Source of the DNA: Abditibacteriaceae bacterium
GTDB lineage: Bacteria > Armatimonadota > Abditibacteriia > Abditibacteriales > Abditibacteriaceae
NCBI GenBank assembly: GCA_031425655.1
Contig: JANPJS010000316.1
Location: forward strand, 1-15,015
Direction: 5' to 3'
DNA length: 15,015 nt
The notes under the pieces are model-generated. The model had not been told where the DNA came from. It made no database searches and saw only the letters and a list, made by a program, of their open reading frames with translations. The stretch's first letter is position 1, and the number at the start of each line of letters is the position of its first letter. The position numbers were made by a program, and so were the translations under genes. Shown here piece by piece: positions 7,858 through 10,003 of the stretch.

Positions 7858-9255
7858 ATGAGAGCCGAATGGATCGAGCGTCGCCTTGCCAAAAGCGACG
7901 GCAACAATAGTCAGATGCACCTTGCCCGACAGGGCGAGATCACCGAGGAAATGCAATATGTCGCGGCGCGCGAGGAAGTGGAGCCGGAATTTATCCGCGA
8001 CGAAATCGCGCGCGGACGCATGATTATTCCCGCCAACATCAACCATGTGAACCTTGAGCCGATGGCGATTGGCGTCGGTTCCAAGTGCAAAATCAACGCG
8101 AACATCGGCAACAGCGCCACCACCTCGAACATCGAAGAGGAATTGGAAAAGCTGCACACCGCCGTGCATTTGGGCGCCGATACGGTGATGGATTTGTCCA
8201 CCGGCGGCGACCTCGACGAGATTCGCCTTTCCAACATCCGCCATTCGCCCGTTCCCATCGGAACCGTGCCGATTTATGAGGCGCTTTATCGCGTGCCGCG
8301 CATCGAAGACCTCAGCATCGAAGTCATGCTCGAAGTCATCGAAAGTCAGGCCAAGCAGGGCGTGGATTATATGACGATTCACGCCGGAGTCAAGCGCGAA
8401 CACGTTCCTTATACACACGGGCGCACGACGGGCATCGTTTCGCGCGGCGGTTCGATTTTGGCGCAATGGATGGAAGCGCACGGCAAGGAAAACTTCCTTT
8501 ACGAGCATTTCGACGCCATTTGCGAGATTTTCAAGAAATACGACGTGAGCTTCAGCTTGGGCGACGGTTTGCGGCCCGGAAGCCTCGCCGATGCCAACGA
8601 CAAAGCGCAATTCGCCGAACTGGACGTGCTGGGCGAACTCACTTTAAAAGCGTGGAAACACGACGTTCAAGTGATGATCGAAGGGCCGGGCCACATTCCC
8701 ATGCACCTCGTCGCCATGAATATTGAGCGCGAAATGCGCGTGTGCCACGAAGCGCCGTTCTACGTTTTAGGCCCGCTCGTGACCGACATCGCGCCCGGCT
8801 ATGACCACATTACATCGGCGATTGGCGCGGCTTTGGCCGGTCAGGCCGGCGCCGCCATGCTTTGCTACGTCACACCCAAAGAGCATCTGGGTTTGCCCAA
8901 CAAAGACGATGTGCGACAGGGCGTTATCGCCTATAAAATCGCCGCGCACGCCGCCGACATCGCGCGTGGCCGCAAAGGCGCCCAAGACCGCGACGATGCG
9001 CTCTCGCGTGCGCGCTTCAACTTCGAGTGGGAAAAGCAATTCGCCTTGTCGCTCGACCCGGAAACCGCGCGCCGAATGCACGACGAGGAATTGCCCGACG
9101 AAGCCTTCAAGAACGCGAAATTCTGCTCGATGTGCGGCCCGAAGTTTTGCTCGATGCGCATCACGCAAACCATGCGCGAATACTCCGACGGCACGCGCAC
9201 ATTGGGCGAAAAGAACAACGGCGTGGCACTGCCGGTGTTCGTTAATGCGGAATGA
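7858..9255 (+). CDS. thiC: Phosphomethylpyrimidine synthase ThiC
   Basis: 'NANIGNS', '[10 protein letters not shown]', 'PIGTVPIY', 'GIVSRGGS', 'LGDGLRPG', 'EGPGHIP', '[12 protein letters not shown]', 'CYVTPKEHL' and the C-terminal Fe-S motif 'CSMCGPKFC'. The start is ATG 7858 after AAGGAG. Confidence 0.98.
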
Positions 9256-9794
9256 GGCTTGAAAAAGAGACTTTTCGCTATGCCAAAACTTCTGCGCTAA
9301 GCGCACTTTGTAAAAGAGCCGATGCGGGCCTGCCCGAAGCCTTGTATTTACTGGACATGGATTCTGGGGAAATCCTATGTTACCGAGAAGCCACAGCGGA
9401 TGCGCCCGATGCGGTTGAGGCAGACCCCAAAGTCCTTCAAGGTCGCGGCAGTGTCAGCGTCTTGCATTCGCATGATGTTCACACACCCCCAAGTGCTGAA
9501 GACTGGGAACAGCTCATCACACATCCGGCGATAAAAGAAGTGGTTAGCGTCACGGCGCAAGCGATTTACACGATGCAGAAACTGGGAAATCAGGAACCGG
9601 TTGCGTTATTCGGCAAGGCGAAACCAGTCCTCGTTTACTATTGGAAATTGCGTAAACTAATGGATGCTGCGGGGTTTAAAGGTCAAAAACCTACACAAGT
9701 TCCACTGGATCAAATGCAGTCTTTTTGGGAACAAGTTAACGATGAAATGGCTGCGGATTATGGGCTGATTCTGCGACGGGAGCAACGGTCATGA
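9252..9794 (+). CDS. Hypothetical protein with a JAB/MPN (JAMM)-like metal-binding motif
   Basis: ATGA overlap with the thiC stop. Motif E29...H72-x-H74-x6-S81-x2-D84 ('PEALYLLD...[15 protein letters not shown]'). Confidence 0.7.
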
Positions 9795-10003
9795 GCAATC
9801 CAAAGAAGAAAAAAGCACGGCTCACGTTCGGTAAAGGCAGTAGCGCCTTGACGCACATGGATGAGTTCATGGAAGAACACGCCGGCGAAATAGAGGAACT
9901 TAACCGGCGTTTCGGAAAAGCCGATAAAGCTGAACTGAGCGACGGCAGAAAGGCTAACACCGTGAACGCTCCAACCACTGTCCCAGTCCAAAAAGCCGCT
10001 TGA
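9791..10003 (+). CDS. Small hypothetical protein (70 aa) with basic N-terminus and acidic core
   Basis: ATGA overlap with the upstream stop, GGGAG RBS at 9778-9782, and a stop codon running directly into the terminator. Confidence 0.65.
   Translation: MSNPKKKKARLTFGKGSSALTHMDEFMEEHAGEIEELNRRFGKADKAELSDGRKANTVNAPTTVPVQKAA

Follow-up and report, generated by a model that had tools for sequence, protein, structure and literature searches.

The stretch analysed here (the window) is a whole contig of 15,015 nucleotides (C316) from the 6.0-Mb, 97% complete genome assembly of an Abditibacteriaceae bacterium, and its subject is a pair of small genes, ORF1 and ORF2, that follow thiC (Table 1). The source genome is called G000 and two of its congeners G002 and G003; C numbers denote contigs of G000 and L numbers loci fetched for comparison. 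The three genes are chained by two ATGA overlaps, the first joining the thiC stop to the ORF1 start (9252-9255) and the second the ORF1 stop to the ORF2 start (9791-9794). An earlier note, made from the sequence alone, had described this chain, a strong terminator behind it and a codon usage more AT-rich than that of thiC, and all three descriptions held: the hairpin at ~10002-10039 folds at -41.3 kcal/mol (z -8.6, 0/200 shuffles equally good), although the same hairpin was absent from the listing of a simple terminator scan, and the G+C content of third codon positions (GC3) is 0.46 for ORF1 and 0.55 for ORF2 as against 0.73 for thiC, which places ORF1 within the lowest 1.3% of 3705 G000 genes (codon-score gene calls). 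A similar hairpin lies directly 3' of the thiC stop in many members of the taxonomic family (by eye). The small partner had been called acidic; ORF2 is in fact basic overall (isoelectric point 9.45, net charge +3) and acidic only in its middle. No thiamine pyrophosphate riboswitch was found by Rfam in the window. One assembled contig of sequencing run X1 covers 9127-10800 with zero differences, a run that is possibly the source of the DNA and so not independent; three other runs had no continuous cover of ORF1-ORF2 and are uninformative.

Table 1. Features of the thiC-ORF1-ORF2 locus, in positions of the window.
Feature	Position	Strand	Description	Assigned role
thiC	7858..9255	+	465 amino acids (aa); PF01964, E 8e-193	Host gene; site of insertion, functionally outside the cassette
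ORF1	9252..9794	+	180 aa; stand-alone JAB/MPN+ domain with C-terminal two-helix extension	Putative toxin
E29	9336..9338	+	Start of strand 1	Predicted proton-transfer glutamate (role as given in excerpts of PMC3239186)
H72-x-H74-x6-S81-x2-D84	9465..9503	+		Predicted zinc site
ORF2	9791..10003	+	70 aa; ATGA-coupled partner	Putative immunity protein or antitoxin
Lys-Ala-Ala-stop	9992..10003	+	C-terminus of ORF2	Degron-like
Hairpin and T-run	10002..10042	+	Strong	Likely terminator of the thiC-ORF1-ORF2 transcript

The motif of ORF1 reads E29, H72-S-H74-x6-S81-x2-D84, as had been recorded from the letters. In its AlphaFold2 model (predicted local distance difference test score 94.9, 22-row alignment), E29 opens strand 30-35, H72 and H74 close strand 68-73 and D84 lies within helix 82-90, and these predicted placements match the definition of JAB domains, with Glu in strand 1, HxH ending strand 3, a Ser, and Asp in helix 3 (PMC3239186; here and below, papers are cited from excerpts of their text). 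JAMM/MPN chains led the searches of the PDB: the best Foldseek match was BRCC36 (E 5e-4), PfJAMM1 had a probability of 0.98-0.99, and the top rows of VIA-align were PfJAMM1 (Z 6.7), Cap3 (Z 6.0) and RadC (Z 5.8), with deaminases ranking below. The superposition on PfJAMM1 (Z 6.7, root-mean-square deviation 3.8 Å over 110 residues) is modest in score, and because Z is below 8 the fold call leans on the motif as well. Judged by this model, ORF1 is a JAB/MPN-fold domain of an unnamed family, which bears out the identity first proposed for it. The residue counts rest on 41 members, from which three short or duplicate sequences had been removed: H74 and D84 are invariant (41/41 each), H72 is kept in 40/41, E29 is Glu in 35 of the 36 sequences that extend over its column, and position 81 is Ser in 26/41 and Gly in 12.

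Canonical JAMM proteins have a spacing of x7 in this motif. ORF1 is like the JAMM/MPN+ peptidases (PfJAMM1, 5ld9; Cap3, 9ild; BRCC36, 5cw3) and RadC (2qlc) in fold and zinc-site residues, and differs from the JAMM proteins in its x6 spacing, its C-terminal two-helix extension and the lack of an adjacent ubiquitin-like or E1 gene. No Pfam family matched ORF1 at E<=1, and NCBIfam and PADLOC gave nothing; PHROGs returned a single weak unnamed match (E 0.002), the PADLOC JAB model touched 1/22 members of the alignment (E 0.005), and a PDB sequence search with the ORF1 alignment found nothing meaningful. ORF1 did not reach the cut-off of Prok-JAB (PF14464), which 5/17 relatives match weakly and below cut-off, and neither ORF1 nor 26 other relatives scanned matched a Pfam model of another named JAB clade. 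By the tests run, ORF1 is thus not a member of Tox-JAB-1/2, RadC or Prok-JAB. Tox-JAB-1 (with Imm65) and Tox-JAB-2/DUF4329 are predicted nucleases and not peptidases (Zhang et al. 2012, PMC3482391). They resemble ORF1 in that a JAB domain with E, HxH, S and D forms the toxin tip and an immunity gene lies downstream, and differ from it in their RHS or secretion carriers and their Imm65 or NTF2-fold immunity proteins, neither of which was seen here; the DUF4329 cluster of Atlas scored only 0.77 for ORF1, in a range (0.77-0.81) that we treat as leads only.

A much better match, over the whole length of ORF1, came from predicted viral structures, of which 24 matched at E<=0.001 (best template-modelling score, TM, 0.72); eight of the 24 are annotated as minor capsid proteins (TM 0.56-0.67 relative to the query, the range matched within the targets not being given). 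In Atlas, unnamed clusters scored 0.94-0.95 and the Phage_min_cap2 cluster 0.89. Three of 18 family representatives (P0003, P0005 and P0009) are phage portal proteins with a C-terminal JAB domain, and that of P0003, 42% identical to ORF1, is its nearest relative after P0002. Three further portal-JAB fusions lie in prophage head modules of genomes G012 and G021, beside capsid genes, which brings to six the relatives with a head-protein carrier on the same polypeptide; ORF1 begins at the thiC stop and has no such carrier. A 49-75-aa gene stands directly behind each of the three portal-JAB genes seen in context. The C-terminal domain is exchangeable on this conserved carrier: two portals with 89% identity bear JAB domains that share just 29%, and a third portal (87% identity) bears an unrelated HExxH domain (weak Peptidase_M78 match), each of these three prophage portals being followed by a 60-75-aa gene. 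Four other portals of the family end in HExxH domains (by eye) and one has a 2H-type domain (PF13563), while 4/11 fetched portal regions are without a long extension and one more, cut by the contig start, is unclassified. The proposed kinship with phage MuF toxins therefore stands as kinship with phage-head toxin domains, but the nearest carrier is a portal and not MuF. MuF toxins (Jamet et al. 2017, PMC5576092), which have a small ORF directly behind the gene in 89% of cases, and portal-fused effectors (Iyer et al. 2017, PMC5512222) share with the family a head protein, an exchangeable C-terminal enzyme and a small ORF next to it, whereas the carrier in the near relatives of ORF1 is the portal itself and ORF1 stands without a carrier, outside any prophage. 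Portal fusions are given for PBECR, 2H and InPase domains, and not for JAB, in the excerpted text of PMC5512222.

The portal regions held other variable elements. Portals at L128-L133 (G009, G023, G007, G022 and G041) carry long variable C-terminal extensions, often after a W-x-E-x-x-H-P-R linker and each followed by another ORF; the 2H-type domain is that of G041. At L128:1399-2597 the portal gene is followed directly by a WHH/colicin-type nuclease with a SUKH immunity gene, in front of which stands a short ORF that also carries this linker motif, and at L132:977-4225 the portal protein is split by an intein with a LAGLIDADG domain. A second variable gene (324-417 aa, no Pfam match) sits between a helix-turn-helix-like gene and the capsid genes in three related prophages (L061:9760-11198, L063:10392-11645 and L129:3365-4524), and in two cases a small gene overlaps its end, possibly a second effector-immunity slot.

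In a tree of 41 domains the stand-alone and fused forms interleave, with at least five changes between them forced by the starred branches. ORF1 and P0002 are together sister to P0003 (100/99), the C253 paralog is sister to the G012 portal domain (100/99), and monophyly of the stand-alone forms was rejected by the approximately unbiased test (p-AU 3.6e-44; 21 rows, namely 14 stand-alone copies of known context and seven fused or linker-bearing ones). The phage form probably preceded the chromosomal one, since the stand-alone C99/C34 type starts just past the linker of the fused form and the matches to head proteins are broad.

G000 holds seven divergent members of the family (17-57% identical), each behind a different gene: thiC, a phosphoglucomutase gene (pgm), a suf-operon Fe-S assembly gene, galT, a rhamnosidase gene, a DUF1592 gene and an unnamed 82-aa gene. 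All seven keep E/HxH/D and have a 56-73-aa partner next to them. Neither ORF1 nor ORF2 was present at any of 29 thiC loci of relatives (two of which reach less than 600 bases beyond the stop), and no JAB match was found at 18 pgm, galT and suf loci from five relatives. At thiC, congener G003 has the same flanking genes and a different spacer of ~620 bases; the galT cassette of G000 separates galT from galK, which are adjacent in 3/3 congeners. Horizontal acquisition at thiC, as had been proposed, agrees with these distributions, and a recent date for it is supported. Other small genes stand before the terminator at L007, L009, L015 and L022, and the 3' end of thiC is in this sense a variable insertion site.

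The link to thiC is incidental, and the cassette has no role in thiamine metabolism. What ThiC synthesises is the pyrimidine moiety of thiamine, a reaction not known to involve a sulfur carrier. The alternative raised in the earlier note, a thiamine-linked peptidase, here taken as a JAMM enzyme for the maturation or recycling of a sulfur carrier, would accommodate the translational coupling of ORF1 to thiC and the action of JAMM peptidases in sulfur-carrier pathways (PMC3239186), but we reject it as extremely improbable: the pair is present at 0/29 thiC loci of relatives, six paralogs lie behind unrelated genes, a search of G000 with Prok-JAB found only a classical Prok-JAB on C204, separate from the cassettes, and small Gly-Gly-ending proteins on C125 and C126, to judge by eye, resemble ThiS and MoaD.

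The family was found in 8/27 genomes of the taxonomic family. Among 401 genomes of the phylum, other families gave no strong match and five weak ones (E 2e-9 to 6e-4, in five genomes). Locus scans of metagenome_contigs, viral_contigs and genome_contigs, tblastn against GenBank phages and a search for longer homologs returned no ORF1 relative; since fused forms are known from other searches, these blanks are weak. In G003 (L050/L071 and L067) a stop interrupts one JAB copy and a frameshift one partner; thiC and galT are split in this assembly too, so that sequencing error is possible.

A 56-90-aa ORF follows 13/14 stand-alone copies, the fourteenth being frameshifted (in G003), and the JAB domain thus co-occurs with a small downstream gene in both stand-alone and portal-fused forms, as the earlier note had anticipated. 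The junction is a 4-base overlap in 10/14 stand-alone pairs and a gap of 2-11 bases in the other four. The partners are mostly dissimilar, and the best pairs among them track the JAB tree (pgm/G003, z 7.0; G016/G004, 7.0; C99/second C34 gene, 6.8; C253/G012 portal partner, 5.5; each 0/500 shuffles, 136 pairs), which suggests that partners co-diverge in part with their JAB domain. ORF2 itself had no Pfam or Atlas match, and used as a query it had no relative in 26 other genomes of the family.

What many partners share is their end. The tail Lys-Ala-Ala-stop (KAA) closes five of the seven first partners in G000 and both partners in G002 (2/2); the sixth G000 first partner has the end KVA, and behind it lies a second small gene closed by KAA. 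These two lie at L036:3508-3930 (C34, the rhamnosidase cassette), and the second resembles the C99 partner, which suggests stacked or replaced cassettes. Among G000 genes of 50-100 aa, 7/618 end KAA, as against 3/4142 larger genes, and six of the seven are partners in JAB cassettes, which are not independent of one another; the seventh small gene, C298:39577-39816, looks like what we take to be a DUF2283-type putative antitoxin. In small genes KAA occurs seven times at the very end and never 1-7 residues earlier, whereas the 4760 called genes taken together show no such peak (10 terminal occurrences and 11 one residue before the end), and the signal is thus limited to these small genes. Both the KAA codons and the stop codons vary synonymously, which points to constraint on the protein. 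An origin of the tail as a by-product of a terminator A-run and GC stem was considered and discarded, because the codons vary, the stop is immediate in 9/9 tails and no hairpin is common to them. Six of the nine tails read x-R-K-A-A, and that of ORF2 reads VQKAA. G000 encodes ClpX, and its transfer-messenger RNA tag ends LALAA. The critical element of ClpXP degrons in E. coli is a terminal Ala-Ala, with a favourable effect of Arg at position 2 of five (PMC10862746).

Such tails might also be read with the roles reversed, the small protein being a ClpXP-limited effector, or a JAB substrate with a trimmed tail, that the JAB domain controls. Characterised JAB domains do cut extended C-terminal tails of small proteins (PMC3239186), and the tail is all that the partners have in common. 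We nevertheless regard this as distinctly unlikely. No partner ends in Gly-Gly or matches a ubiquitin-like protein, as had been observed for ORF2, which also lacks ThiS-like features, and no ubiquitin-like (Gly-Gly) or E1-like gene was seen among the scanned neighbours of the seven G000 cassettes and their relatives; the prophage partners are without the tail altogether (KAA in 0/3); and the JAB domain occupies a portal effector slot that is also filled by HExxH domains.

A degenerate copy of the 3' end of the host gene flanks 3/14 stand-alone cassettes, matching it at 71/91, 169/199 and 83/93 bases (78-89% identical); two of the three are G000's own, and that of G002 also encloses a MazE/PemK pair. 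The ORF1-ORF2 cassette has no duplicate of the thiC 3' end (score 23 as against a shuffle maximum of 33), and no clear mosaic step was found along thiC relative to three congeners; at the thiC loci of two relatives (L010 and L021, from G020 and G034) a duplicate of the thiC end does lie 1.1-1.3 kb downstream. Across G000, 35/3631 genes have a non-paralogous copy of their 3' end within 3 kb (0.4-2.8 kb downstream), and 21 genes have the 5'-end equivalent; the raw 3'-end counts were 66 as against 21 mid-gene, 1 on other contigs and 2 on the reverse strand. Twenty of the 35 loci were fetched (L091-L110), and their cargos include two PIN pairs, two DUF3368/UPF0175 pairs, HicAB, PemK, Fic, HNH, a NotI-type restriction-modification pair and another methylase pair, the remainder being unnamed; no integrase was found among the scanned cargos. 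These scars resemble insertion with long target duplication, in which integrase-less addictive genes are flanked by a long copy of a gene end (Furuta et al. 2010, PMC2853133), with the differences that the thiC cassette is without a duplicate and that the copies here are degenerate.

Recombination at gene ends could also leave neutral phage debris with no current function, to which the patchy spread over the family, the broken copy in G003 and the many unrelated cargos at G000 gene ends would correspond. Such an origin is improbable given that all seven copies in G000 are intact with conserved active sites, that the KAA-stop is retained through synonymous changes and that the 4-base overlap is exact in most stand-alone pairs.

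We therefore favour the view, at a probability of roughly 0.55, that ORF1-ORF2 is a toxin-first, type II-like toxin-antitoxin cassette derived from a phage-head effector-immunity pair. JAB-plus-partner units also occur portal-free, inserted at the 3' ends of unrelated host genes, in this case between the thiC stop and the terminator, and since most partners end in a degradation-like tag, phage weapons may have become toxin-antitoxin pairs; the best reading of the family as a whole is that phage-head effector-immunity pairs have repeatedly been recruited in this way. By analogy, the pair is proposed to work in the manner of polymorphic toxin-immunity pairs as well as of type II systems that place the toxin first, an order of genes known from HigBA, HicAB and MqsRA. 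It has the two-gene coupled module of type II systems, and resembles them further in the small size of both genes, in its multiple divergent chromosomal copies and in sharing gene-end insertion sites with PIN, HicAB and PemK modules of G000; a labile partner, as predicted from the KAA end, would be a further likeness. The pair would be translated from the host transcript through ATGA coupling, and the JAB domain would act as a Zn hydrolase that harms the cell; its candidate substrate is a nucleic acid or nucleotide, by analogy with RadC and Tox-JAB, although a protein is also possible because the ORF1 type shares its slot with HExxH domains. ORF2 would bind the JAB domain and block it, and its KAA end would make it a ClpXP substrate, so that the JAB domain would be released once synthesis stops, be it through cassette loss, translation shut-off or phage infection. 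Toxicity, neutralisation, ClpXP turnover and expression from the host promoter are steps that we infer.

A more specific scenario, which we put forward tentatively, concerns the birth of such systems: portal-borne JAB effectors would have escaped several times, together with their immunity gene, to settle at the 3' ends of housekeeping operons; within one genus, unrelated immunity proteins would have convergently gained a KAA ClpXP degron and so changed from stable to labile. The lack of KAA ends on the prophage partners is what this degron gain needs.

Several points weigh against the toxin-antitoxin interpretation. Unlike most type II systems, the partner has no detected DNA-binding domain (no Pfam domain of any kind was found in 13 partners scanned), and the cassette has no promoter of its own above chance, with five matches found as against 5.3 expected. 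ORF2 resembles other partners only weakly (z 5.6 and 4.4, 136 pairs), and those that it resembles do not belong to sister JAB clades. Partners that lack KAA include that of galT, whose gene overlaps galK, one in G003 and 3/3 stand-alone ones of the sister genus; ClpXP degradation in E. coli requires a terminal Ala-Ala but is not ensured by it (PMC10862746), and VQKAA is without the favoured Arg or Leu. The tree is unrooted, so the direction from phage to chromosome is itself deduced, and the partner count of the fused copies leaves out P0003, as the DNA 3' of it is not covered.

The cassettes might instead be orphan effector-immunity pairs, kept for the protection that the immunity gene gives against JAB effectors of related phages, or as a stock of toxin tips that could recombine into prophage portal genes, with no addiction or stress switch. 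Polymorphic toxin systems have been described to include stand-alone cassettes (PMC3482391), and the seven JAB types in G000 mirror different prophage types. They are, however, dispersed behind housekeeping genes and not beside a portal gene, none of which was found in the 97% complete assembly; catalytic residues are kept in 7/7; and a degradation tag would be expected to shorten the life of a protective immunity protein. We consider this explanation unlikely and retain the toxin-antitoxin one.

Seven natural paralogous pairs in one genome, together with the prophage forms, offer a route to what toxin-type JAB domains cut, a choice between nuclease and peptidase that was a matter of prediction in papers of 2011-2012. 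The same pairs address the origin of toxin-antitoxin systems from polymorphic toxin-immunity pairs, and the three-residue tail bears on whether degron gain is the step that turns an immunity protein into an antitoxin; portal proteins are indicated as carriers of exchangeable effector domains in this lineage. If the birth scenario is true, the cassette would be a type II system with a JAB-domain toxin. In the titles and abstract openings of the open-licence literature we found no description of such a system, of portal-JAB fusions or of degron gain by an immunity protein, although the Aravind and Jamet supplements may list such architectures.

Downstream in the window, at 10180-11319, lies a gene for a protein with NYN and cold-shock domains, which is syntenic with thiC in congener G003; the hairpin divides the cassette from it.

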